64,000 nt of DNA. Source: Candidatus Uhrbacteria bacterium CG10_big_fil_rev_8_21_14_0_10_50_16. Lineage in GTDB: Bacteria; Patescibacteriota; Patescibacteriia; UBA9934; UBA11717. This document shows, piece after piece, positions 27,745-59,095 of this stretch. The notes below the pieces were generated by a model. That model searched no databases. It worked only from the letters and a program-made list of their open reading frames with translations, and was not told the origin of the DNA. Position 1 is the stretch's first letter. Every line of letters begins with the position of its first letter. Location: contig PCYM01000001.1 of the NCBI GenBank assembly GCA_002774875.1, positions 182,153-246,152 of the forward strand. Reading direction: 5' to 3'. A program made the position numbers and the translations under genes.

Positions 27745-27784
27745 ATAACTGAAGAGGCCGCTGTTTGCGACCTTTAATAGAAAC

Positions 27785-27822: not shown

Positions 27823-27835
27823 TGGAAGTTGTGGG

Positions 27836-28546: not shown

Positions 28547-28625
28547 GTCTTTCTCCTCTCCAAGTACGTCAGCGTCATAACGACTCTGCGAACTTATCAG
28601 ATTTTTGAAATTTGTCAACGGAGCC

Positions 28626-28660
28626 GCCTAAACAAAAAAGAGCCCGAGGCTCTTTTAAGC
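28626..28660 (-). terminator. bidirectional terminator after K+ channel gene
   Basis: AAAAAAGAGCCcgaGGCTCTTTT. Confidence 0.7.
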
Positions 28661-28669
28661 AATGAATCG

Positions 28670-29005: not shown

Positions 29006-29247
29006 GATGACATTGTATCAATAAAGGATCCTTTTCTCTCTCCTTTTGTGTGGATAACAAACTCGCGCAAACGGAGGTTCTTCTATTGACAGGATCCGAA
29101 TTTAGAGATATGTTCATTTTATTGGAAAGGTTTATTGAGTCTGTGAGATAAGCGCTGTGTTTATCGATCATTGGTAAACAAGGCGCTTGTCTCATGCACG
29201 AGATGGCCGTGACCGTCCGAAGACGGATCGATTCTAGGGAGACGGTG

Positions 29248-30117: not shown

Positions 30118-30138
30118 CCCAGCGCCTAGCACCCACAA

Positions 30139-30180
30139 GGGGGCGTCCGCAATCCTGCGGACGCCCCCTCTCACTTTATC
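30139..30180 (+). terminator. terminator of cassette A
   Basis: GGGGGCGTCCGCaatcctGCGGACGCCCCC + TCTCACTTTAT. Confidence 0.7.
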
Positions 30181-30238
30181 TACCCTCTATTGACGTCCTG
30201 TCTCTTTTCTTGTATCCTCTCGTTGCGTTTCAATTCAC

Positions 30239-30313
30239 GGCCCCATCGTCTAACGGTTAGGACAGCAGGTTCTCATCCTGCAAATCCGGGTTCGATTCCC
30301 GGTGGGGTCACCA
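30239..30313 (+). tRNA. tRNA-Glu (anticodon CTC), CCA encoded
   Basis: Acceptor GGCCCCA/TGGGGTC, anticodon stem GCAGG/CCTGC with loop TTCTCAT, T-arm CCGGG-TTCGATT-CCCGG, then ACCA. Followed by terminator CCGAGctcgtCTCGG+T7 (30317-30350). Confidence 0.8.
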
Positions 30314-30372
30314 ACAAAAAATCCGAGCTCGTCTCGGGTTTTTTGTTGGTACCTCCCGCGGAAATTGGACAA

Positions 30373-30413
30373 GGGGCACTGGGAAGGGAGAAATTCTCCC
30401 TTCCCAGTGCCCC
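30373..30413. other. 18-bp perfect hairpin (GGGGCACTGGGAAGGGAG aaatt CTCCCTTCCCAGTGCCCC)
   Basis: Perfect inverted repeat 60 nt downstream of tRNA-Glu, no U-tract; candidate recombination/att-type structure at the island border. Confidence 0.6.
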
Positions 30414-30454
30414 TATTATGAGGTTTAAAATGCGATCGACACCACGCATACACT

Positions 30455-30503
30455 CATATCTTATTCTAAATTAACAACACGGTGGGGTCCGGAGACCCCA
30501 CCG
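30455..30503 (-). terminator. terminator of cassette F
   Basis: CGGTGGGGTCtccgGACCCCACCG then UGUUGUUAAUUU on minus strand. Confidence 0.5.
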
Positions 30504-30522
30504 CTATCAGGAGTGGGTGCGT

Positions 30523-31008
30523 TCAGCCGCCGCCGCACCGACACGAGCTACGCTGACCGTGATCGCTGTTGCAGCAACCCTGCGCGTGACCCCAGTCGCG
30601 TTCACCATCCTCGGGCCAGATCTCGGTGTCGAGATCGGCGTACAGGCCGCACAGGTACTCACGGGTGCGCGCGTAGGTTCCCGGCTCCATCGATCCCGGC
30701 AGATCGCACGGGTCGTGGTGAAGGTAATCCACGCCCATGGACTGACAGAAGTCGGTGTACGGCTTGCTGTAGAGCAGGAACGTGTGCCACGCCTCATCGG
30801 CTAGATGTGACGGAGCAAGACGACGACCTTCCGGAACTGCGCAAGCGCGCAGGAACTGGATGGCGCCATCAAAGGCTCGACGGGCCACATCCTCGTCGAT
30901 ACTCATATTCTTGACCATGCGAGCTATCACGCGGTCACGAATGGATGAGTCGAGGTTGTAGTCGGGGAGTCGAATCTGAGACTCGACCAAACAAAGGGCG
31001 GCAGACAT
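30523..31008 (-). CDS. GC-rich ORFan protein (cassette F)
   Basis: about 62% GC. Minus-strand promoter TTGACA-17-TAGAGT, Shine-Dalgarno GAGGTG, 4 nt, then ATG (MSAALCLVES..). Conserved-looking core EAWHTFLLYSKPYTDFC..YLHHDP, Cys-rich tail. Confidence 0.5.
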   Translation of the reverse strand: MSAALCLVESQIRLPDYNLDSSIRDRVIARMVKNMSIDEDVARRAFDGAIQFLRACAVPEGRRLAPSHLADEAWHTFLLYSKPYTDFCQSMGVDYLHHDPCDLPGSMEPGTYARTREYLCGLYADLDTEIWPEDGERDWGHAQGCCNSDHGQRSSCRCGGG

Positions 31009-31079
31009 AAGCACCTCAATCAATCGTCTCGAACGGCATGTCCGAGACGCTTACTCTACGTGCCTCACAGCCATGTTGT

Positions 31080-31125
31080 CAACATATCACTGGTCGGGTC
31101 TATAAAAATAGTGGCGCCCGCCCAG
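31080..31125 (-). terminator. terminator of cassette E
   Basis: GCCCGCCCGGGatcctccTGGGCGGGCGC + CACUAUUUUUAUAG on minus strand. Confidence 0.6.
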
Positions 31126-31148
31126 GAGGATCCCGGGCGGGCGTACGT

Positions 31149-31739
31149 TCACTTGATGTTCGGACAGACCTTGGGCAAATCGGAGAACTGCCAAGAGACT
31201 CCGAGATCCTGCAGATTCCGCAGTTCTTGTTCCATGCGGTTGCGAGTGTTGTTGAGACCGATTGCCATGGCCTGTATGAACCAGGTGCACACGTCGCTGA
31301 TCTCCTGCCAGGTCAACAGCTCGTACTTGGCGAGAACCGCAGACAGACGGCCGTCCTGCCCCTTGTCGAGTCTGCCACTGATGCCATCCACGGCAATCGT
31401 GTTCTGCATCACGTAGACGAGCAGACGGCCGGTCGAATCACTCCCCAGGCGACCCTGCCCGCCCGCGATCATGAGGTCCGCCACCTCCCGATACGAGCTC
31501 CACGCACCCTGGGAGGCTTGGAACATCTCGGCGATCTGCTGTAGTCCGCAGGTCAGCACCTTTGCGTTCTCCACGCGTTCTTCCCGACTCTCCCGTGCCT
31601 GAACCTTGGCCTCGTCTCGAACAGACTGATCCGACACGGACCCGGTGGCCCACGCATTCGTGCAGGACCCCGGTGCCAACAAGAGCACCAACACCACCAA
31701 CATGCAAAACCCCACGAACTTCAATTGCTTCTCCATCAT
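31149..31739 (-). CDS. GC-rich ORFan secreted protein (cassette E)
   Basis: Minus-strand promoter TTGACA-17-TATAAA (31775-31808), Shine-Dalgarno GGGAGAG then ATGATG. Signal peptide MMEKQLKFVGFCMLVVLVLLLAPGSC; 196 aa. Confidence 0.55.
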   Translation of the reverse strand: MMEKQLKFVGFCMLVVLVLLLAPGSCTNAWATGSVSDQSVRDEAKVQARESREERVENAKVLTCGLQQIAEMFQASQGAWSSYREVADLMIAGGQGRLGSDSTGRLLVYVMQNTIAVDGISGRLDKGQDGRLSAVLAKYELLTWQEISDVCTWFIQAMAIGLNNTRNRMEQELRNLQDLGVSWQFSDLPKVCPNIK

Positions 31740-31815
31740 CTCTCCCGTCTCGCCATCTATTCGGCGGATCAACTTCTTTATAGTCAAAAAAAGACTCCGT
31801 GTCAATAGGCCGGGG

Positions 31816-32025
31816 CTAAACCGTCGTCGACCACCACAGGAGAAACGTGACCGTCTCCTCCACAGTGCCAAGCGTCAACAACAGCGTCTTCATCCGTCTT
31901 GTTCCCATACGGCGCCTCAACAAAGCCACCAACGTATTCCACTGCAGAAGATTTAGATCCAGGCCGGTCTGCCTCAGACGTGCGCATACATTTTTCTCAA
32001 CATCTTCCAACGAGAAATCATTCAT
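31816..32025 (-). CDS. possible small ORFan gene with strong Shine-Dalgarno (candidate cassette I)
   Basis: GGAGGT 5 nt before ATG (MNDFSLEDVEK..), 69 aa, about 50% GC. The stop abuts cassette E's promoter; weak TTGACG promoter. Confidence 0.3.
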   Translation of the reverse strand: MNDFSLEDVEKNVCARLRQTGLDLNLLQWNTLVALLRRRMGTRRMKTLLLTLGTVEETVTFLLWWSTTV

Positions 32026-38707: not shown

Positions 38708-38864
38708 CTAGCACACAGTATACCACCTTGACAAAATCGCCATTTTCTGATAGGTTAGACCGTCACATTCCGTCTGAGGTTTGTGCAAAATTCACCAGAA
38801 ACATGCCTGTTTGAGGCTGTGCAACACATTTGATCTGCGCCTACGTGCGCGAGAGGAGGATGCG

Positions 38865-41018
38865 ATGAGCGTGAACGTGAAGAAGATTGGTTGGATGGGC
38901 TTCCACTCGGGTCGTCCGCATTTGGACGACTTGTTGGCAGCCGTGATTGGATGCGTGCTTGGCCTCTTTGAGGTCGAGTTCATGGACCCGAAGAGTTCCG
39001 TAAACCTTATCCTGGACGCGAGCGGCATCTCCAATGCCCTGGCGCGCCAGATGAGCGAGACGGGGCGGGACGCCGACGGCGTGCAGTTGTACGCCGCGTG
39101 GATCGGCACGACCCCCAACGGTGGGACCTCCCCCGTCTCCGAGGGCGACCAGTGGTGGTCGCCCTACGACGAGCACGGGAGTGGCAACCCCGCGGACTCG
39201 GCCACGGAGCTCATGCTCCACCTGGCCGGGGACGACAAGGCCATTGGCCGGCGGCTCCAGACCCTCTTCCGGGGATGGGGCATCCGCGCCTCGGAGGCGC
39301 AGGTCGCGGAGTCGGTGGAAAAGCTCCACCACATGGTGGCCTACACCACCATGAAGGACAACTTTCCCGTCGCCATGCGCGGCGGAATCAGCTGGCTCCT
39401 CAAGCAGCTGAACCGGGTGTGCTGCTTCCAGATCGGAGAAGGTGGGAAGATCCGGGAGGAGTCCTACTCCTCCCAGGAGGTCCTCCGTGACCTCCGTTGG
39501 ATCTACCGACTGCTCGTCACCTACATGACGAGCAACCTGCAGATTGAGACCTCCGATCTGGCCGCCGTGGACCAGGAGATGGTTCACTGGTACCTCCAGC
39601 GTGAGGACGTGAGCCCGGCATGGAAGCCGGACACCGCTCCACGCACGATGGCGGAGCTGACGGCCATGATCCGGACGGAGGTGCGCCGCAAGGCGCTGGA
39701 GGCCAAGAAGGCCAACCGGGCATTCAGCCCGCCCTCCACGCTGCTCCGCCGTTTGCGGAGCCTCACCGCTCTGGTGAGTGACTTGCGCAACCCCAGCAAC
39801 TGGGCATCGGTGGAGGCATGGATGCTCCACCAATGGATGGGGGGCAAGAAGGTCCACCTCGGGATGAACGTGGGTAACACCACGACCATCCAGGAGGTGA
39901 TCGCCAACCTCGCCGCCCGCGCGGAAGCTCTCAAGGAGAGCGCGCGGGCGGACACACCCCGCCAGCAGGAGAAGCTGGAGGGCTGGATCCGGCAGCTGCA
40001 GGAGTTGCAGCTGCGCGTGGAGGATGAAGAGCAGACCCGCCAGCTGATGGCGGGAGATGAGCGGATGGATGAGCGGACCGCCGCCTCCCCCTACGGGGTG
40101 GTGGCGACCACGGTCCTGCTCCTGCGGCGTTCCCGCCGCACGGACGGCCTGGCCTTCCCCGAGGGTCAGGCCGTGGCCGAGGAGTACCTCTTCATGGCGC
40201 TGGACGCGCTGTGGGGAAAGATGCTCCTGGCGGAGGCCGCCTCCCGTCAGATCCAGGAGGCACAGGCGGACCCCACCTGCACGCCGGCCATCGCGGTCGA
40301 CTGGCAGGTGAAAGGTGTGGAGCAGCCGGGACTGCTCCACTCCGATGGCATCAACCCCGAGACCCCGGCGGAGGCCCGCCGGATCTTGGGCAAAGGCCAG
40401 GTGGGTGGTCGCCAGGTGAAGCGCTTCCCGCTGATCCTGGTCACCTGCGAGAAGCTGCCGGACGGTACGCCGTTCGGAAGCGCCTACCTGGGCGCCGACC
40501 AGCGGTACTTCGGTACCGACTGGACGGACGGATTCTTCCGTCACATCACGTCCTGGCTCCGAGTCATGGAACTCCGGCGCCAGGGCAATCCGTTGCCGGA
40601 GGACCTCGATACCCTCGAGGCGCCCGACAAGGTGCAGGACCACGTGTGGTTCCTACACCTCAACGGAGACGGAAAGGCCGTCCAGGTGATGGCCAAGAGC
40701 CTCCACCGCCGGGATTCGCCCGGTACGGAGCTGGACGCCAAGCAGGAGATCCTGGCCGCCCAACTGGTGGTCTACACCGTCTTCTGCGCCTGGCGGTCTC
40801 TCGGAGTGTTCGGCAGCCAGCAGGGCCGCCTCAGCCTCCGGGCACGGGACAGCGCCCTGCGGGCGCTCCGCCACCGCCTCGCCGGCGCCGAGGACATGGC
40901 CGCCGAGCTGCAGCTCATCTTGAGCGAGCTCCGCAGCCAGATCGTCATCCACCAGACCGCCCTCCTCCCCCTGCGGGAGTCGAAGGCGCCGGGTGAAGAG
41001 CTCGCCCCCACGAGCTAA
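38865..41018 (+). CDS. large GC-rich ORFan protein, 718 aa (cassette B)
   Basis: about 65% GC against about 48% in flanking genes. Promoter TTGACA(38729-38734)-17-TAGGTT, Shine-Dalgarno GAGGAGGA, 4 nt, then ATG (MSVNVKKIGW..). Balanced amino-acid composition, whereas the other five frames give R/G/L/H-rich artefacts. Terminator 41050-41092. Confidence 0.65.
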   Translation: MSVNVKKIGWMGFHSGRPHLDDLLAAVIGCVLGLFEVEFMDPKSSVNLILDASGISNALARQMSETGRDADGVQLYAAWIGTTPNGGTSPVSEGDQWWSPYDEHGSGNPADSATELMLHLAGDDKAIGRRLQTLFRGWGIRASEAQVAESVEKLHHMVAYTTMKDNFPVAMRGGISWLLKQLNRVCCFQIGEGGKIREESYSSQEVLRDLRWIYRLLVTYMTSNLQIETSDLAAVDQEMVHWYLQREDVSPAWKPDTAPRTMAELTAMIRTEVRRKALEAKKANRAFSPPSTLLRRLRSLTALVSDLRNPSNWASVEAWMLHQWMGGKKVHLGMNVGNTTTIQEVIANLAARAEALKESARADTPRQQEKLEGWIRQLQELQLRVEDEEQTRQLMAGDERMDERTAASPYGVVATTVLLLRRSRRTDGLAFPEGQAVAEEYLFMALDALWGKMLLAEAASRQIQEAQADPTCTPAIAVDWQVKGVEQPGLLHSDGINPETPAEARRILGKGQVGGRQVKRFPLILVTCEKLPDGTPFGSAYLGADQRYFGTDWTDGFFRHITSWLRVMELRRQGNPLPEDLDTLEAPDKVQDHVWFLHLNGDGKAVQVMAKSLHRRDSPGTELDAKQEILAAQLVVYTVFCAWRSLGVFGSQQGRLSLRARDSALRALRHRLAGAEDMAAELQLILSELRSQIVIHQTALLPLRESKAPGEELAPTS

Positions 41019-41049
41019 CCCCCTCCTGCACATGGAGGGACGCGAAAAA

Positions 41050-41092
41050 AGAGGGGCTCCGCAATCTGCGTGAGCCCCTTTTCCTTTTATCT
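41050..41092 (+). terminator. terminator of cassette B
   Basis: AGAGGGGCTCcgcaatctgcgtGAGCCCCTTTTCCTTTTAT. Confidence 0.7.
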
Positions 41093-41098
41093 CTTTTT

Positions 41099-41455
41099 TT
41101 ATTGCGCCGCAGCAATCGCTGCAACAAGTTTTGCTTTAAGACCCGTAAGTGCCGTGACGGCCGTTGCATAATCTTCATCACGGATTGCACGCGATCCCAC
41201 ATATCCTTCTTCCTCCCACACACTCAATTGTGTTGCATCCACACCCGCGGTACTTGCATCCACGAGCAACTGTCCCACGTCGAGCATAAGGTTAAGCGCT
41301 TGGGTCTTTGCGGCACTATCCACGGGAGCCGCTGTCTTAGGGATCTCCTGCGCAGGCACTGCTAATGGTTCAACAGGAATTGAATCGGAGGGTTTGGAAG
41401 CACATCCAGCTCCCACGAGTGAGAAGGCCATGAGCGAGAGAATGAGTTTTTTCAT
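41099..41455 (-). CDS. hypothetical lipoprotein
   Basis: Signal peptide with lipobox-like LVGAGC; 118 aa. Confidence 0.5.
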   Translation of the reverse strand: MKKLILSLMAFSLVGAGCASKPSDSIPVEPLAVPAQEIPKTAAPVDSAAKTQALNLMLDVGQLLVDASTAGVDATQLSVWEEEGYVGSRAIRDEDYATAVTALTGLKAKLVAAIAAAQ

Positions 41456-45564: not shown

Positions 45565-46140
45565 TTAAAGCGGCATTGAGAGGTTGATGGAGGCGGCAAG
45601 CTCTACCTCCGGCGCCACAGAAAAGGCAATCTCATGCACCTGCCCCATCCGGTCCTCAAACAACACATGCCCATGCTCGCGTGCAAATTCATAAATCTCT
45701 TTCGTGACACGGACATCTTGCAAACAATAGTCGGCGAGTTCCTGAATTTTTCCTTCCTTCCAAAACTCTACTGCCTGTAATCCGTGACCAGACTTTCCCA
45801 TACCAAGCGTGGACTTTGCCACGTCATCTAACTTGACGCGATAGCCGAGCGTCTGGTGAATTTTTTCCAACAGGTCGAGTTGTGGAATTTGATTCAAATC
45901 ACCCGCGTAGTAATTATTCATAACCGGGTTATCGAACCCTTTTTGGTTGTAGCCGATAATACGATCCGCTTGCTCAAGCCGCGGCCAAAGTTTTGGCAGG
46001 TCCGGCTCCAAAAAATATTCGTAACTGTCTGTTTCAAAAAAATACACCCCAACGAGCGATATGCGGAGCTTGTCATGATGCCATCCGCCAACGTCTTCAA
46101 AGGTGTTTTGAGTTTCAATATCGAGAACAATTTCTTTGGA
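45565..46140 (-). CDS. 3'-5' exonuclease, PolB-exo-like (DEDDy) fold
   Basis: VLDIETQ (Exo I), FDNPVM, YCLQDV; start taken at MSKEIVLDIE. Confidence 0.55.
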   Translation of the reverse strand, partial: SKEIVLDIETQNTFEDVGGWHHDKLRISLVGVYFFETDSYEYFLEPDLPKLWPRLEQADRIIGYNQKGFDNPVMNNYYAGDLNQIPQLDLLEKIHQTLGYRVKLDDVAKSTLGMGKSGHGLQAVEFWKEGKIQELADYCLQDVRVTKEIYEFAREHGHVLFEDRMGQVHEIAFSVAPEVELAASINLSMPL

Positions 46141-46274
46141 CATAGATAAAAGAGGAGGTCGAGCTAGGACACGATTATAACATATTGATTTTATCTCTAA
46201 TCTGAGAGAACCCTTGACAAAATCTGCAAAGACAGGTTGAATGGACATGCGTCAAATTCCACGACGCAAGGAGC

Positions 46275-46581: not shown

Positions 46582-47115
46582 CCATTCGTACAACCGAGCC
46601 GTAGCACGACCGACCGGTTGTTCTTTTTTTATCGTCGCCCCACCGGAAAGCGTAAAGTCGTGAGAGAGGACTTTGACATGCGTGTATCGGTCTCTAAGTC
46701 GCTGTTCGATTTTCTGCATGGCTTTTGGAAGAAGGTACAGAACCACCACATCCGTATCCGGCAGATCAACCTTAAAGATGTTCCCTCGAATAATCGTAAC
46801 CATATCCGATACACCGTTGCGATACGCGCGCCATCGTGCCAACCACACCAATACGGGATTGAGTTCGATGCCTATACACACGGCGCCATATTCGCGCGCC
46901 GCAACCAGCAACATACTCGCATCTCCACACCCCAGATCCACGACACGATCACCTGGTTTAATCCCGCCAAGACCACACATCGCGCGCGTGATCGCCTTAT
47001 TTGTTGGGACCCACGGCGCGCCCGAGAAAATCGTCAACGTCACCGCCACCATAAACACCGAAAAAATGCACAAACAAATCAACACAATCAACAAAATAAT
47101 CGTTGCTAGTTCCAT
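46579..47115 (-). CDS. class I SAM-dependent methyltransferase with N-terminal TM helix
   Basis: VVDLGCGDASMLL (motif I), ELNPVLV; ATG 1 nt after upstream stop. Confidence 0.65.
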   Translation of the reverse strand: MELATIILLIVLICLCIFSVFMVAVTLTIFSGAPWVPTNKAITRAMCGLGGIKPGDRVVDLGCGDASMLLVAAREYGAVCIGIELNPVLVWLARWRAYRNGVSDMVTIIRGNIFKVDLPDTDVVVLYLLPKAMQKIEQRLRDRYTHVKVLSHDFTLSGGATIKKEQPVGRATARLYEW

Positions 47116-47116
47116 A

Positions 47117-48490
47117 TTACACAACCTCTGCCATCGTCGCCGCACCTGCGACCGCTTCTGAATACGTTGGATAGGCGTGTATCATTTCCGCCAGATCATC
47201 CATGCGCGCCTTCAGATGAATCGCAAGCGCCACTTCATGAATCAGCTCCCCGGCTCGCTCGCTTACTATGTGGCCGCCAAGCAGTTTGCGCGTTTTTGGA
47301 TCCGCAACAAGCTTTACAAATCCCTTTGTGTTGCCATCAATATAGGCACGACCAAGACCTCGCATATAAAATGTTCCCACCAGCACGGTGCCGTATTTTT
47401 CTCGCACTTCTGCCTCCGTCATTCCCACACTCGCCACCTCTGGGTCTACAAACGTCACCCGCGGCACCACGCGTTCGTCCACCTGTCGTGGAGTTTTAGC
47501 AAACGCATTCGCACCTGCAAGTGACCCTTCATAGTGTGCCGTGTGCGTAAACAACATCCCACCGTCCACATCCCCCGCCGCCCAGATGTTTTGCGCGCTC
47601 GTTACGAGCTCTGAGTTAGTGAGAACATTTCCCCGCGCATCCAATTGCACACCCGCAGCCTGACAACCAAGGCCTGCGGTATTTGCCTTCTTACCCGTTG
47701 CCAACACAAGCACTTGTGATTTGATTATTTTCATCTCCTTTCCCACGCGCACTTTTGTCTGTGTCCCTTTTTCTGCTTTCTCGACACGAATCACCTCCGC
47801 GTTTAATTCAACATGGATATTCAAAACGGCAAATTGATTTGCAACAAGCTCTGAGATTTCTGGTTCTTCTCGATTTAACAGCGCGCCCGCATGTTGAATA
47901 ATCGTGACCCGCGTGCCAAAACTCGCATAAATCAATGCCAACTCGCACCCAACAGGCCCGCCCCCGATAATGGTCATAGACTCGGGCAGCGCATCAAACG
48001 TCACCGCCTCTTTAAATCCAATCCACGCCACCTGATCAATCCCCGGGATCTCGGGAACAAACGTGGAGGATCCAGTCGCGATTACAAACTTGTCCGACGT
48101 CACCTGCTTGTCATCGATCTGTACCGTATGCGCGTCCAAAAATGTTGCAAACCCATGTAACACATCTATGCCAAGTTTATCGGCGATTTTTTCGATACGC
48201 GATCCACCGAGGGCACCAACAATCTGACCACGCCGCTTCATAATCTCCACAAAATCTGCCGTCACATCCTTGCTCGTCACGCCATACATCTGCGTCTGCA
48301 ATAAATCTCTGTAGACTTTGGCGCTTTTTAAGAGAGCTTTCGTTGGCACGCACGCCCAGTTTGGACACTCACCTCCAAGACGATCCGCCTCCACAATGCC
48401 AATCTTACGACCCTGCCCTTTTGCTGCATGCGCCGCGGAGAATCCTGCAGAACCGGATCCAATCACTAATAAGTCGTAGTCGTATTTCAT
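47117..48490 (-). CDS. class I pyridine nucleotide-disulfide oxidoreductase (dihydrolipoamide dehydrogenase / mercuric reductase family)
   Basis: FAD GxGxxG (VIGSGSAG), redox-active disulfide GGECPNWACVPTK, NAD site, C-terminal dimerisation domain. Confidence 0.8.
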   Translation of the reverse strand: MKYDYDLLVIGSGSAGFSAAHAAKGQGRKIGIVEADRLGGECPNWACVPTKALLKSAKVYRDLLQTQMYGVTSKDVTADFVEIMKRRGQIVGALGGSRIEKIADKLGIDVLHGFATFLDAHTVQIDDKQVTSDKFVIATGSSTFVPEIPGIDQVAWIGFKEAVTFDALPESMTIIGGGPVGCELALIYASFGTRVTIIQHAGALLNREEPEISELVANQFAVLNIHVELNAEVIRVEKAEKGTQTKVRVGKEMKIIKSQVLVLATGKKANTAGLGCQAAGVQLDARGNVLTNSELVTSAQNIWAAGDVDGGMLFTHTAHYEGSLAGANAFAKTPRQVDERVVPRVTFVDPEVASVGMTEAEVREKYGTVLVGTFYMRGLGRAYIDGNTKGFVKLVADPKTRKLLGGHIVSERAGELIHEVALAIHLKARMDDLAEMIHAYPTYSEAVAGAATMAEVV

Positions 48491-50894: not shown

Positions 50895-52604
50895 CTATTC
50901 AATTTCTTCTTTTTGGGCCTTCACAAACGCGATCCACCCTTCCACAAGCTCAATAGCAAGTTTGATTGGTGCCTCGGCAACGTAATCCAAGAAAAAGGCA
51001 AACACATTCAACTTACTTGCACGCAACGTCATCCAACGGCCGGCGCGAGTAATCGGCAACAGAAAGAAATCAAACAGTGTTCCAAACACACTTCCTTGCC
51101 GTTCCACAACCAATAATTCCAATGTGCTCTGACGAATCCGCAATCCAAAGAACGTCACCAACGAGAAGAAGAGTAAGAACAACATCACGGACACCACATT
51201 AAAGGAGAGGACCACTGCCAAGAACCAGGCAAGGAATCCGTAACTCACCACGTAGGTCAACAAGTACAGCGTCGTAAAGAACCGTCCAAGTGCACCCTGC
51301 GTCCAGGGCTTGCGAATCTTAAACACCACGCCCAATGCTTGATCTTTTCCACTCAACACCGCCTTTACAAACGTGAGCAGTTGCGCCGTGTTGCGCTTTG
51401 CAGGAATGGTAAGCGTTGTGCCAATGAGCGCCAAGAAAAACGGATGGAATAGGATATTGATCGCTAACGATGTCTGGTTGATGTGCTGCAGCGCAAAGAA
51501 TTCATACGGAACCTCAATAATCAACGCCAACAACATTTTTGTAATAAACAAGAACAGCACGGCACGAGCCACCGTACGCGTGCGGCGTTTCTTAAATCGA
51601 TCGTAACGCGCGTAGGCTACATTGCGGACGGCCGTCGCAAGACGATCATCGTCCCGTGCCACTTCTGCAAAGTCTTTATGTTTCTCAATGAGGTCATGCA
51701 AGGTCCAAAACACAAACGTAAACCGCCGCATGTAGCGGAACAGTTGATCGGCTAATGGATGCTGAATCTGTCCATCAATTGCCTTCATGATTTTAGGCAA
51801 CTTGTGGGCGACGTCGTCAATTTCCGCCTGCGTGGCTTTTCCCCAATGCGGGAAGTACAACAACATAACTCGGTAGCGGAGCGATCCAAGATTAGACTTC
51901 AATAACGAACGGTGGATTGCGATATAAATGAGCAAATCCTTTTGCTTATCATCGATCTTCCCAGCCTCCCACACCAACTCGCGCCTGACGCGATCAAACA
52001 TAAAGTTTGCCAGCGCCTCATTCCCCTTTGGTGGGTGTAACAAATATTCAATTTCTGTAGAGATGACGTCAAACAGCCACTCCTCCATGTCGTTTTGCTC
52101 GTCACTGTTCTGTGGAATGACGGCAAATAGGCGATCGTATTTTTGAATCACCTTTTCCACCGTGTCGATCATCTCAATCGGCACCTGCTTGTTGGGAAGA
52201 TACTTGGCCCAAATCAACTCACGCAACACCAATTCTCCGCGTGAGATGCCGTGTTGATCGATTCCCTGAATCCGACGTTGCAAAATACGACGAATCGCAT
52301 TACGTCGCACCAAATGTTCTTCCTCGTACTCCACCGCGCGCCGTACCTTCTCGTAGGCAGATCCGGCCGTGCGACTTGTTTTACTCACCGTTATTTTTTC
52401 TCCATCTTCCGGCCACTCCTGCGTGGAGTGAATCGCCGATATGAGGTGCTTTACATGTTCCATAGTGAGGATAGTATAACATGGCGAGCAAAAGACTGCG
52501 GATATCTCCGTCTCCTTTCGTTCCCTCTTATTATTGGTTGTATACAAAAAGGCATGTCTCCATGCCCTTTGTTCAGTTGTTTGTAAATCGTGTGTGGAGG
52601 GCAA
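50895..52604 (-). CDS. hypothetical polytopic membrane protein
   Basis: 569-aa ORF (true start may be MEHVKHLI at about 52463), soluble N-domain plus about 8 TM helices. Confidence 0.45.
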   Translation of the reverse strand: MPSTHDLQTTEQRAWRHAFLYTTNNKRERKETEISAVFCSPCYTILTMEHVKHLISAIHSTQEWPEDGEKITVSKTSRTAGSAYEKVRRAVEYEEEHLVRRNAIRRILQRRIQGIDQHGISRGELVLRELIWAKYLPNKQVPIEMIDTVEKVIQKYDRLFAVIPQNSDEQNDMEEWLFDVISTEIEYLLHPPKGNEALANFMFDRVRRELVWEAGKIDDKQKDLLIYIAIHRSLLKSNLGSLRYRVMLLYFPHWGKATQAEIDDVAHKLPKIMKAIDGQIQHPLADQLFRYMRRFTFVFWTLHDLIEKHKDFAEVARDDDRLATAVRNVAYARYDRFKKRRTRTVARAVLFLFITKMLLALIIEVPYEFFALQHINQTSLAINILFHPFFLALIGTTLTIPAKRNTAQLLTFVKAVLSGKDQALGVVFKIRKPWTQGALGRFFTTLYLLTYVVSYGFLAWFLAVVLSFNVVSVMLFLLFFSLVTFFGLRIRQSTLELLVVERQGSVFGTLFDFFLLPITRAGRWMTLRASKLNVFAFFLDYVAEAPIKLAIELVEGWIAFVKAQKEEIE

Positions 52605-53241
52605 TCGCTACAGCGTGACCCACATTCAGTGATTCAAGTGCCTCCTTGTGGCTAATCGACACCGACGTTCCCTCAACCGGTAGTTGTAATCCGTTCCCTT
52701 CACTTCCCACCACCAAGACAATCTCCTTTTGCTCGTTGAGGCCGTTTAACGACGTTCCGCCTTTTTCTAATCGATACACCGGTCGTCCAAGCTGCTCGAT
52801 CACCGTGAGTGCTTCTGGCCGTGACACAACCACCCAAGGGACCTGGAACAAGGCACCGACAGACGATCGCACCACCTTTGGATTGGTGACATCCACGGAA
52901 TCAATCAACAGCACAGCACCGTCAAATCCCAAGCAAAGTCGCAAAATCGCTCCCACATTCCCAGGATCTTGTACGCCATCTAGTACAAGGATCGTTGAAG
53001 CGTTTTTAACGTCCTCCAAACTCCACTCGGGGATTCGCGCCATCGCGGCATGATCTTGAGGAGTATCGGTCGTCACCAACCCATCAAACTCCAACACGTC
53101 ACCTCGTGTAAAACGCGTGACCACGGCGTCTCCCGCTAGGGCGATCACCTTTTCCCCCTCCACTAAACAGAGACCGTGTTTTGCACGTCCTTTTTTGGTC
53201 TGCAGCGACCGAACAATTTTTTCTTGGGCATTGCTTAGCAT
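52573..53241 (-). CDS. TrmH-family rRNA 2'-O-methyltransferase (RlmB-like)
   Basis: VLDGVQDPGNVGAILR, VLVVGSEGNGL SPOUT motifs; start at MLSNAQEKIVRSL avoids overlap. Confidence 0.7.
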   Translation of the reverse strand: MLSNAQEKIVRSLQTKKGRAKHGLCLVEGEKVIALAGDAVVTRFTRGDVLEFDGLVTTDTPQDHAAMARIPEWSLEDVKNASTILVLDGVQDPGNVGAILRLCLGFDGAVLLIDSVDVTNPKVVRSSVGALFQVPWVVVSRPEALTVIEQLGRPVYRLEKGGTSLNGLNEQKEIVLVVGSEGNGLQLPVEGTSVSISHKEALESLNVGHAVAIALHTRFTNN

Positions 53242-53299
53242 AGTGGGAGGACCTAACCACATATCCTGCGATCCGTCAACCGGGGATCTCTGTGGACAA

Positions 53300-53653
53300 C
53301 TAGCCGTCCTTACGGAATTTAACGGAAAATGAGGGGACCCAGCGTTGATCGGCTTTATCCACAACCTCCACCTGTTCCTTGGCGAGGTACATGTTAAGCG
53401 ACAAATCTGAGAGGAGTTCTTGCAAACTCATGATCTCCAGCTTGAGATCGTCCAAGCGTTGTGCATCTTTGAGCGCGTGCGATTTAACTTCGTTCTCAAT
53501 GCTCTTCTTTTTTTCACGAAGAATCTTCATTTCTTCTGTGACTTTATTGTATTCCGCGTTATGTGAGAGCTCATCCTTAATGGTTTTGCTCAAATCGCGG
53601 CGTTCCATTTTTACGTCTAAAAGGTCGTTATAGGTTTCTTGTAATCGAGACAT
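53300..53653 (-). CDS. hypothetical coiled-coil protein
   Basis: 117 aa, heptad-rich K/E sequence. Confidence 0.4.
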   Translation of the reverse strand: MSRLQETYNDLLDVKMERRDLSKTIKDELSHNAEYNKVTEEMKILREKKKSIENEVKSHALKDAQRLDDLKLEIMSLQELLSDLSLNMYLAKEQVEVVDKADQRWVPSFSVKFRKDG

Positions 53654-53768
53654 ACAAAAGGGTTATGTGCGCGCCATTGTATCACAATGTTCTTCTTGCA
53701 CGGTTGACAGTCTCACAAAAAATAGGTACAACCTCTGTACTGATCAAAGATATCAGTGGAGAACAGGT

Positions 53769-54290
53769 ATGGAAGATGGTAAGGATTTCTATTTTGAGAG
53801 CGTGATCATTCACGTGGGAGACAAGACGGTGGAGCTGGAGCATGTGCACAGCACCAACAGGCGGTTGCAACGGCTCATGGAGCAGGGTTACGACATAGCC
53901 GCATCGCTCGAGTTCACGGTGGACCCGAATAATCAGGTGGCGACCCAGCTGGGTCTACTGCAGTACCTGCCTGACCCGCGGCAGACGGAGGTCGCGGAAC
54001 CCGAGGTGGGCACTCAACCCGTCGACCTCGCCAACACCGGATTCACGCAAGAACAAGTGAACCTCCTCAACACCCCGGTTAGTGAGCTCCCCCAGATCTT
54101 CGTCGTCCAAGAAATTGTGAGCCTGGCTAGTCGCCATCTGACGCGTCTTCACCACGTAGTGGTGGGCGGTGGACCGAGGTCCCTGAGCCTTTCTGAGGCG
54201 ACAGAGACCAGATATCAGAACTTGCTCAACGCGCACGGCCTGAAGATCTATTCGCCACTTTCGAGCATTGAGGACCTCCTCCTCGTCTAG
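53769..54290 (+). CDS. GC-rich ORFan protein, 173 aa (cassette D)
   Basis: about 57% GC. Promoter TTGACA(53712-53717)-17-TACAAC, Shine-Dalgarno GGAGAA, 6 nt, then ATG (MEDGKDFYFE..). Terminator GAGCCCGcaccactggtgtCGGGCTC+AAACATTTTTC (54306-54342). Confidence 0.55.
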   Translation: MEDGKDFYFESVIIHVGDKTVELEHVHSTNRRLQRLMEQGYDIAASLEFTVDPNNQVATQLGLLQYLPDPRQTEVAEPEVGTQPVDLANTGFTQEQVNLLNTPVSELPQIFVVQEIVSLASRHLTRLHHVVVGGGPRSLSLSEATETRYQNLLNAHGLKIYSPLSSIEDLLLV

Positions 54291-54305
54291 CAGCCCCTAC
54301 AACAA

Positions 54306-54342
54306 GAGCCCGCACCACTGGTGTCGGGCTCAAACATTTTTC
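54306..54342 (+). terminator. terminator of cassette D
   Basis: GAGCCCG/CGGGCTC hairpin plus T-run. Confidence 0.65.
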
Positions 54343-54356
54343 AACCGTTCCTCTGT

Positions 54357-54782
54357 TTAACGTGCGCGATAGGGGTAGGCTTTTCTAAAATCATCCTCGG
54401 TTCCCTCTACCCCATCCTTCCCCGCGGAAACCAATTGAATCATGGTTGCATCCGTCTCGGGTGTCACAAGGTGAATGGACTGCGTAAACGTATCCGTGGT
54501 TGGATACGCGTCCCCCGTGAGCGTCTGCCACTCCACAAAACGCTGCGTCAGGCTCACCGAAGCATCCGTATCGTACTCGTGTTCAAAGACCCACGTCATA
54601 AACCCATCGGCCACTTGATCAAACACCGTCTGCGTCAGCGACCCATCGATTCCCACAAACGCGCTGTCCTGCGTGGTATCCACCGTTTTATTACTCACCA
54701 AACCACCCGACACGCACCCCGCGCCCAGCACGAGTGTAAGCATACCAAGCATCCCTATCTGCAACAGAGGTTTATTCACCAT
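54357..54782 (-). CDS. hypothetical lipoprotein
   Basis: Signal peptide with lipobox LVLGAGC; 141 aa. Confidence 0.45.
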   Translation of the reverse strand: MVNKPLLQIGMLGMLTLVLGAGCVSGGLVSNKTVDTTQDSAFVGIDGSLTQTVFDQVADGFMTWVFEHEYDTDASVSLTQRFVEWQTLTGDAYPTTDTFTQSIHLVTPETDATMIQLVSAGKDGVEGTEDDFRKAYPYRAR

Positions 54783-56343
54783 AAAGTAATTGAGCGGCGG
54801 CAGGCGCCATTTGATAATTAGAATGAGCTACACCTGGGACCACCTGAAACGTCCAGTTAAACAACAACCCATTATCCATTGCAAATTGTCTCGCAGCGTT
54901 ATAAAAGTTTGTCGCACGTTCAACGCGTTGAGATCCCTGTAACTTGGCGGCAGCTGATTTTGATAAGTTTTCCGCATTTGGGTCCGTGTCCTCCGATCCA
55001 ACAATGACTTGCATTGGGACGGAAAACGATTGTGCCAAACGATCGTGATCAAAAAACGCTTCTCCAAATCCCGCAGGATAGGTCTGACCATAGTCTGGCC
55101 ACAGATACCAACCCGAGCTCGCTGCAATCACGCGTCTGACCTTTGCGTAAGGCTTGGCAAAAATAGCACGATGAACGAGTTGTCCACCACCAGAAAACCC
55201 AAATAAATCATAGAGTTGCTCCGTACTGTTCGATGTGGCAATAACCTGATCGAAAATCGCATCAAACATCGTTGCATACCAATAATTCTCTGGGAGAGCC
55301 ATACGGCTGCTCGTATAAATGTTTCCGTAAGGGTATTGATACCCCGAGGTATACACATCGGCTGGGAAATGAGGAAGCAATAACACAAAACCGTATTGTT
55401 CAGCATAGGGGACCCAACTAGACCTATACCCCTCAACAGCTCGACTTGCCCCATGAATAACAAACAAGATCGGAGCATCCTGTGGTAATCCCGCAGGGCG
55501 ATACGTGTAAACGGTCATTGGAATTGTAGGATTTATTGAAGGGTCCTGAAAAACAAATGAGCCGTATCCTTCTGGAATCAAAGAAGAAATGAGCGATATC
55601 TCTCCTTGTTCAAGCGGGATCTGCTCGCCGGCAACGGGCGCATGATCCACAACAGGCGCAAATAATTGTGCTGCATCTACAACCTCATCAACATGTCCCG
55701 TCATTACCTGTCCAATAGCCCGTGTAGGTGTAATAGTATCCGTCCAAATTCTCAAATCCGAACGCAAAGCATTTGCCGTGATCGCCGCTGCCGTCAACAA
55801 ATGTTTCTCCCCATTCCACACCATCCACGGATCACCACCGTTTGTGTAGACCAATCCGTTATACCCTTGGGATACATTCTCCGTAGTAATTGCCTCACCT
55901 ACGTGGTAATTCAAAAAAAACGTGTCAGGGACATCTCGTACGCGCGATTGCCACTGGTACGTGCCCGAAAGTTGTTGCGCCACCTGCTCACTCTCAATCC
56001 ATCGAATCTCGCCACCCTGCCCAACCGCATATACTTTTGGCAATGATTGAATTTTAATCCAGTACGTTCCGGGTCGATAAACAATATTCGCTCTTAATGG
56101 CAATGCAGCCATCTGAGATTGAGAGATAATGGTAACAGCAGAAAAATCTTGATACCAAGAGAAAAATACTTGTTCGTCTGGGAACGCGTGCCGGTTTCCC
56201 TGTGTATCAACGTAGTACACAGCGGATGCCTGCTCCGTTTTAACAAGCGATTGTGGAGCAATAGCCAAACTTGCATGCACAAATAGAGAGGAAGCTAGCA
56301 TTAATCCAAAACTCAATAAGCCCAGTGAGACGCAACGCTGCAT
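54772..56343 (-). CDS. secreted alpha/beta-hydrolase (esterase/PHB-depolymerase-like) with N-terminal extra domain
   Basis: Signal peptide; GxSxG nucleophile elbow LFGFSGGGQL in C-terminal half. Confidence 0.6.
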   Translation of the reverse strand: MQRCVSLGLLSFGLMLASSLFVHASLAIAPQSLVKTEQASAVYYVDTQGNRHAFPDEQVFFSWYQDFSAVTIISQSQMAALPLRANIVYRPGTYWIKIQSLPKVYAVGQGGEIRWIESEQVAQQLSGTYQWQSRVRDVPDTFFLNYHVGEAITTENVSQGYNGLVYTNGGDPWMVWNGEKHLLTAAAITANALRSDLRIWTDTITPTRAIGQVMTGHVDEVVDAAQLFAPVVDHAPVAGEQIPLEQGEISLISSLIPEGYGSFVFQDPSINPTIPMTVYTYRPAGLPQDAPILFVIHGASRAVEGYRSSWVPYAEQYGFVLLLPHFPADVYTSGYQYPYGNIYTSSRMALPENYWYATMFDAIFDQVIATSNSTEQLYDLFGFSGGGQLVHRAIFAKPYAKVRRVIAASSGWYLWPDYGQTYPAGFGEAFFDHDRLAQSFSVPMQVIVGSEDTDPNAENLSKSAAAKLQGSQRVERATNFYNAARQFAMDNGLLFNWTFQVVPGVAHSNYQMAPAAAQLLYGE

Positions 56344-56409: not shown

Positions 56410-57774
56410 ATGCAAACATTTTCCAACAAAACATTCACCTTTGTCTCCTACGCATTTGAAACAACAACCGGTGTCATTACCCTTTTGTATGATTTGAACG
56501 GCGATACCTACAAGGAGCGCATCACTGTGCCAATGAGCGATATCAATATGGACTGCGTCCCCCAGGAAGATCTTGATCGCGCACTTTTCTCTCTGCACCT
56601 CATGGTTGGAATCGGCTATTGGAAAACGTACTGCCCAAAAAACATCGTCATTCAAAGCGGCCAACTCACCCGCACACAGGCGCATTTTTGGAACACCGTC
56701 TACACCAACGGGCTTGGTGAATTGTATTACAAAAACGACATCGACTTTCGCGATCAAGTACATTTTCCCTACAATAAAGACTTGGAGGCACTCGTTCCAC
56801 AGGGCAGCAACGAGCGTAAGGAGCATGTATTGGTCCCCTTTGGTGGCGGAAAGGACTCCGTGGTGACGGCCGAGCTCATGCGCAAGCTCGGATTTACTGT
56901 GACCCTTTTCTCCATTCAAGACGCGGCACCAATCCAAGACGCCGCCCGTGTTTTTGACGCCCCACACGTGATTGTCGACAGAGCACTGGATCCAAACATC
57001 GTTGATCCCACCTCTGCCGTGCGCACAGACCCACAGGCGTTTAACGGTCACGTACCCATTAGTGCTATCTGGTCCATGATCACCGTTGTGACCGCAATCC
57101 TCCATGGTGCTACAGATATCGTGTACTCCTGGGAGCGGTCTGCATCGGAGGGAAACTTGGAGTATCTCGGCATGGAGATCAACCATCAGTGGAGCAAGTC
57201 GTTGGCATTTGAACGCTCACTCCAAGCCTACGTAGATACATTCATTACCAAACGCACACGCATCTATAGCCTTGTACGACCATTGAGTGAATTTCATATC
57301 GTGCAGCTCTTTACGCGCTATCCGCAGTATTTTGATTCTTTCTCGAGCTGTAATCGCAACTACACGCAGGAGGCCATTGCCAATCACGCGCCGACGTTTT
57401 GGTGCAATCAGTGCCCAAAATGTGCGTTTATTTTCTCGCAACTCAATGCGTTTTTGCCGCACACACAGGTGGTAAACATCTTCGGCGAAGACATGTTTGC
57501 CAATGACAACTTACTTGATCTCTACCGCGAGCTCCTAGGGATTCAGGGAAACAAGCCATTTGAGTGTGTCGGTGAGGCTAAAGAGGTGGTTGCCGCTATG
57601 GAACTTGCCTACCGTCGCGCCGATGCAAACGACGCACCTGTCATGCAACTCTATGCGGGTGAAGTACGAGACACCGTTGAGGATCATGATGCCGTAATCC
57701 AAGACTTGCTCACGCCAAGCACGGATCATGCGGTTCCATCTGACATCGTTGCACGCGTGGATTATGCGGCTTAA
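56410..57774 (+). CDS. PP-loop ATP pyrophosphatase-family protein; candidate UDP-MurNAc-L-Ala-L-Glu epimerase MurL
   Basis: SGGxDS-type PP-loop VPFGGGKDSVV, C-terminal Cys cluster WCNQCPKC. Overlaps and is co-oriented with a MurD-like ligase gene. Confidence 0.5.
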   Translation: MQTFSNKTFTFVSYAFETTTGVITLLYDLNGDTYKERITVPMSDINMDCVPQEDLDRALFSLHLMVGIGYWKTYCPKNIVIQSGQLTRTQAHFWNTVYTNGLGELYYKNDIDFRDQVHFPYNKDLEALVPQGSNERKEHVLVPFGGGKDSVVTAELMRKLGFTVTLFSIQDAAPIQDAARVFDAPHVIVDRALDPNIVDPTSAVRTDPQAFNGHVPISAIWSMITVVTAILHGATDIVYSWERSASEGNLEYLGMEINHQWSKSLAFERSLQAYVDTFITKRTRIYSLVRPLSEFHIVQLFTRYPQYFDSFSSCNRNYTQEAIANHAPTFWCNQCPKCAFIFSQLNAFLPHTQVVNIFGEDMFANDNLLDLYRELLGIQGNKPFECVGEAKEVVAAMELAYRRADANDAPVMQLYAGEVRDTVEDHDAVIQDLLTPSTDHAVPSDIVARVDYAA

Positions 57775-59095
57775 AGACCTTGCCAACAAACGTGTTGCTT
57801 TGATTGGATTTGAGGCGACCAACCGTTCCCTATTTTATGCACTTCGCTCCGTCTGCCCCAACCTCTGGGTAGAGATTCGCGATCTTCGCACCACCGTCAC
57901 GCTGCCAGAGGACCCGTTTGTTACGCACACACTCGGCGAAACATACCTAGACCATCTACAAACGTTCGACGTCATTATTCGATCACCTGGCGTGCGCTAT
58001 TGGCCACAGTTGCAAGCGGTGCAATCGCATGTCACCACAAGTCTCAATCTCTTCTTTGACGAGGTACGATCAACGACCACGGCAACGATGATTGGTGTCA
58101 CCGGGACCAAGGGAAAATCAACCACTGCCACCCTGTTGGCACATGTTTTGCGTGAGGCGGGTAAAGCTGTGACGCTCATTGGCAACATGGATATTCAGGA
58201 ATGGGATCACCTACACGAGATTAACGACGACACAATTGTCGTGTACGAGATGTCCAGCTACATGTTGGAAGATTTTAACAACTGGCCAGACATTGCCCTC
58301 CTGCTCCCCTTATACCCGGATCATATGGACTGGCATGGATCATTTGCCGCATACACCGAGGCTAAATCTCGCATTACGGCTCGTCAAACAAGCGAAAACA
58401 TGTTGATCTTTCCTGCTAAAAACGCGGAGGCTCTCTCCATTGCAAAACAGACAGACGCCACAACCATCCCCGTGCAGATTGTAAGCGGTCTTCATTGGCA
58501 AAACGGTTTCTTTTTTGATGGAACACAGCAACTTTTTTCTACAAACGCGCTCCCGCTCCCCGGAGAGCATTGGTTAGACGATGCACTGCTCGTTCTCGCT
58601 GTCGTTAAACAGTTGGACATTCCCTTTGACCGTGCCCAGCGTGCGTTCACCAGCTTCAAAGGTTTGCCACATCGATTAGAGGTTGTGGCAACAATCAACC
58701 AAGTAACCTACGTGGACGATGCTATTTCCACCACACCAGAATCAACAATCGCGGCTGTAAAGGCGTTCGATACGGTCGGATCCATTGTCTTGGGCGGTAT
58801 GGATCGCGGATATGATTATGTGGCACTTGCGCAGCTACTCACAGAACGTCACGTGCCAAACGTCCTCCTCTTCCCCGGCGCCCGTGAGAAATTTCAACAC
58901 GCTCTTACACGCGCTCAGTTTGCTGGTAGCGTGATTCTTGTGGAATCCATGCAGGAGGTCGTTTCTACCATGGCGCAGTGCACACCCGCAGGGTCTGTGG
59001 CACTCTTGTCTACCGCCGCACCAAGTTACGATCAGTTTAAGAATTACAAAGATCAGGGGCAACAGTTTGTGGATTGTGTTCGAAAGTTGTCTTAG
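57764..59095 (+). CDS. MurD-family UDP-MurNAc-L-Ala--glutamate ligase (candidate MurD2)
   Basis: GVTGTKGKSTTATLLAHVL P-loop, Mur ligase central and C-terminal domains; start at MRLKDLANKRVALIGFE. Confidence 0.65.
   Translation: MRLKDLANKRVALIGFEATNRSLFYALRSVCPNLWVEIRDLRTTVTLPEDPFVTHTLGETYLDHLQTFDVIIRSPGVRYWPQLQAVQSHVTTSLNLFFDEVRSTTTATMIGVTGTKGKSTTATLLAHVLREAGKAVTLIGNMDIQEWDHLHEINDDTIVVYEMSSYMLEDFNNWPDIALLLPLYPDHMDWHGSFAAYTEAKSRITARQTSENMLIFPAKNAEALSIAKQTDATTIPVQIVSGLHWQNGFFFDGTQQLFSTNALPLPGEHWLDDALLVLAVVKQLDIPFDRAQRAFTSFKGLPHRLEVVATINQVTYVDDAISTTPESTIAAVKAFDTVGSIVLGGMDRGYDYVALAQLLTERHVPNVLLFPGAREKFQHALTRAQFAGSVILVESMQEVVSTMAQCTPAGSVALLSTAAPSYDQFKNYKDQGQQFVDCVRKLS

Follow-up and report, generated by a model that had tools for sequence, protein, structure and literature searches.

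We analysed a 64,000-nt stretch of DNA (hereafter the window) from Candidatus Uhrbacteria bacterium CG10_big_fil_rev_8_21_14_0_10, an uncultured groundwater bacterium of the Candidate Phyla Radiation (CPR; Patescibacteria). The analysis centred on cassette D, a plus-strand insert with a single gene of 173 codons, ORF173, placed between two minus-strand host genes. The best explanation, to which we give a probability of about 0.6, is that cassette D is a self-contained, horizontally acquired, moron-like accessory gene of mosaic structure, lodged in a chromosome.

The genes on either side of cassette D encode a putative lipoprotein (lipo141) and a 117-aa coiled-coil-like protein (cc117). In five relatives without the insert (loci L005, L006, L007 and L010 and a 929-kb JGI contig), cc117 comes straight after the lipoprotein gene and in the same orientation, at a distance of 23-31 nt or with an overlap. 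Since the flanking genes are adjacent in these five more distant relatives, the ORF173 unit is a lineage-specific insert; about 650-700 nt of DNA with a high GC content at third codon positions (GC3) split a co-directional gene pair in reverse orientation. This comparison bore out the original prediction, made from the window alone, of a plus-strand insert among minus-strand host genes. A relative of ORF173 was found in the same slot and orientation only in the sister lineage UBA11717, where the allele, encoding the protein P0002, was read in three loci (L001, L002 and L003). Thus, the gene had been called an ORFan almost correctly: it has one relative, in the sister lineage, and the insert is not private to the window genome. 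At locus L009, the slot holds two unrelated same-strand genes with a host-like composition.

The features of cassette D and its flanks, in window coordinates, were as follows.

53300-53653, minus strand: cc117, the 117-aa coiled-coil-like host gene, downstream of the insert on the minus strand.
53620-53974: low-divergence block, covering the cc117 5' end, the 115-nt divergent promoter region and ORF173 codons 1-68; 92-98% identical to L001.
53676-53684, minus strand: putative extended -10 promoter TGATACAAT, read from the sequence, 22 nt before the cc117 start codon.
53704-53732, plus strand: putative sigma-70-type promoter TTGACA-17-TACAAC (-35 box at 53704-53709, -10 box at 53727-53732).
53758-53763, plus strand: Shine-Dalgarno site GGAGAA, with 7 nt from GGAG to the ATG.
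53769-54290, plus strand: ORF173 coding sequence, 173 aa plus stop, with ATG at 53769 and TAG at 54288-54290.
53769-53972, plus strand: N-module, codons 1-68; 82% aa and 92% nt identity to P0002; probably folded.
53942-53955: perfect 14-nt palindrome GACCCAGCTGGGTC, inside codons 58-63, present in both lineages.
53973-54290, plus strand: variable part, codons 69-173; an acidic proline-rich linker, then a predicted helical C-module.
54296-54341, both strands: putative bidirectional intrinsic terminator, consisting of the 10-mer CCTACAACAA (TTGTTGTAGG on the minus strand), a hairpin at 54306-54331 and AAACATTTTT.
54357-54782, minus strand: lipo141, the putative lipoprotein host gene, converging on the shared terminator.

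The divergence of the window from the sister lineage was estimated by the NG86 method as the proportions of synonymous (pS) and non-synonymous (pN) differences and as the ratio of the non-synonymous to the synonymous rate (dN/dS), with two alleles available for ORF173. The DNA background of the two lineages is ~71-78% identical, and synonymous sites are saturated: of 16 host genes tested, 15 had a pS of 0.67-0.78, and cc117 had 0.56. In the ten genes that flank cassette D, the range was 0.56-0.78. Within the low-divergence block, the 115-nt intergenic region carries five differences (4.3%), and codons 1-68 carry two synonymous and 15 non-synonymous differences (pS 0.044, pN 0.095, dN/dS 2.2). 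The synonymous deficit of the block against the host genes was highly significant (p < 1e-13). The left edge of the block coincides with a gene boundary. At its right edge, identity collapses at ~53975, directly after the motif QLGLLQY(L/M)P and ~20 nt past the palindrome GACCCAGCTGGGTC, and it stays at the level of unrelated sequence up to the end of the lipoprotein gene.

No similarity was detected, in DNA or protein, between the C part of the window allele and the 138-aa C part of P0002 (p = 0.8), and a resemblance of the C-terminal tails (N-x-L-L-x-x-x-G-L) was discarded as not significant (p = 0.18-0.8). As read from this alignment, the recent-ancestry signal in cassette D is limited to the promoter and the N-module, and the 3' part has two readings: an unrelated module attached near codon 69, or what remains of an older sequence. 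Two other causes of the conserved block were rejected. Codon bias cannot lower pS so far and would leave the intergenic region unprotected, and an overlapping gene is opposed by the stops in the other frames, which are no better conserved. Donors of the variable part, as expected from silent cassettes or from a diversity-generating retroelement (DGR), were also rejected, as it has no second copy in the window or the compared loci.

A second unit of the window, cassette C, served as an independent comparison.

38865-41018 (block 38715-41150), plus strand: cassette C, the 717-aa ORFan PIR47998.1, with a GC content of 66% and a GC3 of 0.87.

In cassette C, the promoter-like sequence TTGACA-17-TAGGTT is accompanied by the Shine-Dalgarno sequence GAGGAGG and a strong terminator. 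The unit has a syntenic counterpart in UBA11717, where the protein is 93% identical, with a pS of 0.142 versus 0.67-0.78 in the flanks and a dN/dS of 0.25. The conserved block runs from just upstream of the promoter, through the terminator, into the first ~50 nt of the gene lipo118; its left edge is sharp at the cassette boundary, and on the right identity fades over ~150 nt into the flanking gene. In a 34-kb synteny scan at 90% identity or more, only tRNA-Glu, a probable HU gene (placed by synteny, itself not scanned), three short stretches and cassettes C and D were recovered. The low divergence common to C and D indicates that the shared ancestor of these GC-rich units is much younger than that of the backbones, either because genes passed recently between the two lineages or because both received them from a single donor pool. 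The cassette C region was found again in two further loci (L012 and L013), at 99.98-99.99% identity; these represent the same strain as the window and add no third lineage to the comparison. At the left end of cassette C, TGGTATACT lies on the minus strand just before a divergent penicillin-binding protein gene (ATG at 38707), a layout that mirrors cassette D.

The composition of ORF173 also sets it apart from its surroundings. It was described as GC-rich, which holds to a moderate degree: its GC content is 57.5% versus 50.2% in the window, and its GC3 is 0.73 versus 0.42-0.63 in the neighbouring genes. In round figures, the neighbours have a GC content of about 50% and a GC3 of about 55%. The raised values of ORF173 hold for both halves of the gene and for both alleles. 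The relative synonymous codon usage of ORF173 correlates with that of the other GC-rich units (r = 0.76) and hardly with that of 23 host genes (r = 0.08). A log-likelihood ratio favoured cassette-type usage by +0.23 bit per codon in both halves of ORF173, versus -0.27 to -0.82 bit per codon in host controls of similar size. Foreign codon usage remains unameliorated in the 3' halves of both alleles. The combination of host-like codon usage with homology to a housekeeping family, which would have spoken for a host gene, was not found.

At least six GC3-rich single-gene units are present in the 64 kb, all of them ORFans except unit A, which encodes a Pyr4-like membrane terpene cyclase; apart from this cyclase, no Pfam or PADLOC family was found in them. 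Part of them form a GC-rich island at 27750-31900 around tRNA-Glu (30239-30313), with at least four single-gene units bearing their own candidate promoters and terminators: the Pyr4-like cyclase (27836-28546, minus strand), alongside ORFans with lengths of 307, 166 and 200 aa. At the position of this island, other genes are present in the sister lineage (L011, 766-3194).

The original prediction also held that cassette D has the same architecture as other cassettes of the window. This stands only in a generic sense: the promoter follows the consensus of the host and is no signature peculiar to cassettes. Four of the six GC3-rich units have a perfect TTGACA-N16-18-TANNNT promoter. TTGACA-N16-18-TANNNT occurs at eight sites in the window against 1.46 expected, a count reached in 0 of 100 shuffles. 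Four of the eight precede GC3-rich single-gene units (27836-28546, minus; 29194-30117, plus; 30523-31023, minus; 38865-41018, plus). Further sites lie upstream of tRNA-Gln and of a minus-strand host operon, the first gene of which begins at 27696; this is probably a heat-shock operon because DnaK-, DnaJ- and GrpE-like genes follow. The presence of the motif before tRNA-Gln and the host operon marks it as the organism's own sigma-70-type consensus and not as a sequence shared by the cassettes.

All the elements predicted for a self-contained unit (promoter, ribosome-binding site and terminator) could be recognised around ORF173. The sequence TTGACA-17-TACAAC occurs once in the window against 0.08 expected, and the sister lineage has the same promoter sequence apart from one spacer nucleotide. 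The start of the cassette had been placed at 53712, which is 8 nt past the beginning of the -35 box (53704); the gene itself is real, and its product is identical to the deposited hypothetical protein PIR48011.1 (COV06_01265). The terminator hairpin of 26 nt has a folding energy of -20.2 kcal/mol on the plus strand (z = -5.5) and is followed by the T run AAACATTTTT. On the minus strand, it has -19.9 kcal/mol and is followed by TTGTTGTAGG, so that the terminator may also end the converging lipo141 transcript. The sister-lineage terminator has a different hairpin stem at the equivalent position, after the identical 10-mer.

At the other end of the insert, the extended -10 sequence TGATACAAT would restart transcription of cc117 and the SpoU-type methylase gene behind it; in insert-free relatives, TGCTATACT occupies the corresponding position. 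Inspection by eye had also suggested that an inverted repeat of 8 nt borders the insert (ACGGTTGA / TCAACCGT), but it was dropped due to its absence from the sister allele.

The protein was described as lacking any recognisable motif, and our searches agreed: Pfam, NCBIfam, PHROGs, PADLOC, PDB sequences, phage and plasmid records searched by tblastn, and IMG/VR gave no match to ORF173. The threshold for families in Pfam, NCBIfam and PADLOC was E <= 0.1; with the modules submitted to Pfam separately at E <= 10, only sub-threshold matches of the N-module to DUF7795 (E = 0.19) and HTH_24 (E = 0.23) appeared. The best PDB sequence-profile match, an integrin I-domain (E = 0.51), was treated as noise. 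A word search of 5.8 billion proteins and an exhaustive HMMER search of 1.84 billion representatives returned only ORF173 itself, P0002 (206 aa) and two repeat surface proteins (P0003 and P0004); the latter share a short motif and were rejected as homologues. The variable part of ORF173 had no relatives in the protein databases searched, and the P0002 C-module queried alone recovered only itself. In a scan of genome contigs, the relative was found only in UBA11717, and two metagenome scans were empty; a metagenome match (L004) proved to be a chance hit to an unrelated gene.

A low-confidence AlphaFold2 model built from the two-sequence alignment (predicted local distance difference test score, pLDDT, 38 over the full length and 58 over the N-module) suggests a beta-beta-alpha-beta-beta N-module, followed by a linker and helices. 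Foldseek, one of the checks proposed with the original prediction, found no PDB match to the N-module below E = 0.8, and no fold was assigned. No signal peptide or sorting signal was detected in ORF173.

From these observations, we propose the following model. ORF173 would be transcribed from its own TTGACA-17-TACAAC promoter and translated via the GGAG Shine-Dalgarno site, and the ORF173 and lipoprotein transcripts would converge on one bidirectional terminator. At the left edge, two promoters would stand back to back, one driving ORF173 and the extended -10 promoter restarting cc117-SpoU. The product would be a cytosolic two-module protein, in which an acidic linker connects a 68-aa N-module, its hydrophobic core conserved, to a helical C-module. 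By silent-site divergence, the promoter and N-module share with the sister allele an ancestor at least 10-fold more recent than that of the host backbone, the likely cause being a recent exchange between the lineages or a recent supply from a shared pool of GC-rich donors. The non-homologous C-modules would reflect recombination with a breakpoint near codon 69. On the surface of the N-module, residues appear to change faster than silent sites. The N-module may be a constant scaffold with the C-module as its exchangeable specificity part.

A constant/variable, fast-evolving pattern of this kind is what accessory genes for conflict or partner specificity typically show. With modest confidence, we suggest that ORF173 could have a role in conflict or partner interaction (with a phage, host or competitor) in which the C-module confers specificity.

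Several points weigh against a horizontally acquired mosaic gene. Compared with neutral sites of the block, replacements are in excess to a degree that is only suggestive (odds ratio 2.3, one-sided p = 0.055), and with only two alleles the dN/dS of 2.2 rests on 15 versus 2 changes. The -10 box of ORF173 (TACAAC) lacks the usual final T, which is why a generic promoter scan did not list this promoter. Neither homology nor a confident structure (pLDDT 38 and 58) supports a function. The vicinity of cassette D yielded no donor, mobile-element gene, integrase, direct repeat or phage gene. As to the 3' part, module replacement is favoured by the foreign codon usage retained in both alleles, whereas an old shared 3' end is favoured by terminators at the equivalent place after the same 10-mer, with different stems. 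The same insertion site in both lineages, together with the different stems, fits an old shared 3' insertion, so the history needs at least two events.

The first alternative is a single old insertion in the common ancestor, inherited vertically, in which the 5' block was held by selection at the nucleotide level (as a structured RNA, a regulatory leader or protein-binding DNA) and the 3' half drifted. We consider it unlikely, although it would account for the same slot and orientation in both lineages, for the left edge of the block at a gene boundary, and for terminators equivalent in place after the same 10-mer with stems that differ as after long divergence. However, an RNA element was rejected as the cause of the block because the best Rfam match had an E-value of 5.3 and fold energies were ordinary on both strands (z = -0.84 and 0.06). 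Additionally, no alternative open frame absorbs the changes, and both 3' halves still have a foreign codon usage. Cassette C provides a further argument: it is a 2.4-kb protein-coding unit, equally low in divergence over its whole length, which RNA-level constraint cannot hold.

A polymorphic toxin- or immunity-type locus, in which a constant N-module is combined with C-terminal effector modules swapped at a fixed junction, is a rather improbable alternative. The drop from 92% nucleotide identity to none, sharply after QLGLLQY(L/M)P, the N-module dN/dS above 1 and the 14-nt palindrome beside the junction all agree with such a locus. Yet ORF173 showed no domain for secretion or trafficking, none known from toxins or immunity proteins, and no PADLOC match; there is no second same-strand gene, as the open reading frame (ORF) runs into the terminator and the converging host gene; and no silent or orphan modules were present in the 64-kb window or the compared loci.

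We regard it as very improbable that ORF173 is no gene at all but an ORF arisen by chance in GC-rich intergenic DNA, or a locus for a non-coding RNA. This would agree with a dN/dS of at least 1 in codons 1-68, with the failure to find homologues, with the poor structure prediction and with the tendency of GC-rich DNA to keep frames open; in the window, the 3' part lacks stops in its antisense frame as well. Against it, the ORF173 frame is open in both alleles (173 and 206 aa) across unalignable 3' halves, where only 3.4% and 0.46% of mononucleotide shuffles of the respective alleles stay open, and the remaining frames of the L001 allele contain 3-6 stops each. The GC content by codon position is 0.66/0.34/0.73 in ORF173, and this periodicity is similar in both halves and both alleles. 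Replacements in the N-module affected 1 of 28 hydrophobic versus 11 of 40 polar residues (p = 0.011), as expected for a folded domain with a conserved core. The Shine-Dalgarno site is at an ideal distance, and neither an RNA family nor an RNA structure was found. Judged by these sequence features, ORF173 is a real coding gene.

An assembly or binning artefact, such as a chimeric contig or a repeat collapsed between metagenomes, is scarcely credible even though both genomes are metagenome-assembled, since the window allele and its junction into the variable part recur in a separate assembly (L008, one difference in 885 nt), the cassette C region is found again in L012 and L013, the sister allele is identical across its three assemblies, and the two alleles differ by 4-8% in the shared block and hence were not collapsed into one sequence.

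The horizontally acquired, mosaic gene that we favour may also belong to something larger. Cassette D and the other GC3-rich units could represent a previously undescribed class of non-autonomous CPR gene cassettes that move precisely between genomes diverged by ~25%. Cassette D would be a modular member, its C-terminal specificity module being swapped at a fixed junction beside the 14-nt palindrome. This extension is speculative, and we think it improbable as it stands. A putative bidirectional terminator and a putative outward promoter for the interrupted host operon were traced in both cassettes C and D.

Regarding the flanks, cc117 has 14 homologues, in Uhrbacteria-like contigs, and no other protein of the neighbourhood is as well conserved: 96% of its amino acids are identical in the sister lineage, with a dN/dS of 0.03 and a pS of 0.56. 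It has no family assignment and always stands before a SpoU-type methylase gene in these contigs. The lipo141 protein is 65% identical to its sister-lineage counterpart, with a pS of 0.70. The wider neighbourhood contains the SpoU methylase, glycosidases and MurL/MurD. Two mechanically called minus-strand ORFs, 50895-52604 (569 aa) and 52573-53364 (263 aa), begin ~40-48 codons before the positions called as starts in relatives (521 and 222 aa), and their true starts are probably internal ATGs (MEHVKH... and MLSNAQEK...).

Between MurL and the lipoprotein gene lies a secreted 523-aa esterase, similar to polyhydroxybutyrate depolymerases (54772-56343, minus strand). It is missing in L005, L006, L007 and L010, where MurL abuts the lipoprotein gene, and in L009 its slot holds a Peptidase_C25 protein with a similar N-terminus. 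Unlike the adjoining cassette D, the esterase represents an old insertion, given its host-like GC content (46.8%) and saturated pS (0.68). The gene for the MurL-like UDP-MurNAc-L-Ala-L-Glu epimerase, whose NCBIfam match (E = 1.5e-113) stays below the equivalog cut-off, and a gene for a MurD-type ligase overlap (56410-59095 together, plus strand). The pair is conserved in every relative examined and suggests that the peptidoglycan of a CPR bacterium may be made by the route that adds L-Glu and then epimerises it. Outside the GC-rich cassettes, two short stretches match the sister lineage at 91-95.5% identity: 46001-46150 and 47101-47350, of which the second encodes the N-terminal end of a pyridine-nucleotide disulfide oxidoreductase. 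Small tracts of recombination or codons under strong constraint could explain them.

CPR genomes are small and are thought to be streamlined. To our knowledge, the mode and donors of gene gain in them are poorly understood. Here, two lineages with saturated backbones have in common units of foreign composition with 4-14% silent divergence, at the same site for both units compared. Cassettes C and D can be read as a trace left by recent gene flow, either between such uncultured, episymbiont-like bacteria or into them. As a kind of element, a foreign transcription unit with an ORFan is already known; the evolutionary addition of this analysis is its repeated, sharp contrast with a saturated CPR backbone. 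Cassette D also illustrates how an insert might split an operon without killing it, with a putative bidirectional terminator at one end and putative back-to-back promoters at the other. The ORF173 protein, as a two-member family with a fast-evolving surface and a replaceable C-module, is a candidate for a conflict or partner-specificity function.

Finally, cassette D was compared with known systems. ORF173 shares the ~20-residue motif GYD(I/V)A(A/T)S(L/I)EFTV with the SpaA/Cna-B repeats of the Gram-positive surface proteins P0003 and P0004. Only 20-45 residues match, with 33-45 residues in the alignments to the repeat proteins, the E-value is summed over 4-7 repeats, and no SpaA or Cna-B family of Pfam matches the N-module even at E = 10; a SpaA/Cna-B domain was therefore not assigned, and the match was treated as a local motif resemblance.

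A DGR target has a variable region, a near-identical template repeat, a nearby reverse transcriptase and adenine-specific changes. No template repeat of the variable part was found in the window or the compared loci (the whole genome was not searched). ORF173 is not a DGR target, because no template repeat turned up within that range and its variable parts are unalignable, beyond what adenine-specific mutation produces. An integron gene cassette is a promoterless ORF with a 3' attC site, arrayed next to intI/attI. Cassette D differs in having its own candidate promoter and in standing isolated among housekeeping genes, and the units are scattered on both strands. No integrase was found by Pfam scans of seven ORFs around cassette D and seven other proteins, mostly from GC-rich units (the rest of the window was left unscanned, and attC was not modelled formally). 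The presence of its own promoter, the lack of an array and the lack of an integrase among the scanned proteins argue that cassette D is not an integron cassette.

With genomic islands of ORFans, cassette D shares an atypical composition, restriction to a lineage, the lack of known homologues and a codon usage common to five other units of the window. However, the GC-rich units are single genes scattered in conserved operons and not one tRNA-adjacent island with an integrase; a partial likeness is offered by the separate cluster of units that flanks tRNA-Glu at 27.7-31.9 kb. Polymorphic toxin and bacteriocin-type genes resemble ORF173 in a sharply bounded constant 5' part, unrelated 3' parts and fast evolution, but differ in having a secretion or trafficking domain, a toxin domain, a downstream same-strand immunity gene or orphan modules, none of which accompanies ORF173.

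The closest comparison is with phage morons, independent transcription units added between two phage genes and spread by horizontal transfer (Cumby et al. 2012, PMC3594210). Cassette D differs in its surroundings, which are chromosomal housekeeping genes (SpoU methylase, glycosidase, MurL and MurD) and not a phage or prophage, and it has no PHROG, phage-record or IMG/VR match. Moron membership fails on phage residence for these reasons, namely the housekeeping neighbours and the lack of phage similarity. Cassette D would also differ in supplying or retaining a promoter for the downstream host genes. In all other respects compared, it is like a moron: one gene with its own promoter and terminator, as recognised in the sequence, that sits between genes adjacent in relatives, differs from them in base composition, appears to spread horizontally and has an accessory or unassigned role.

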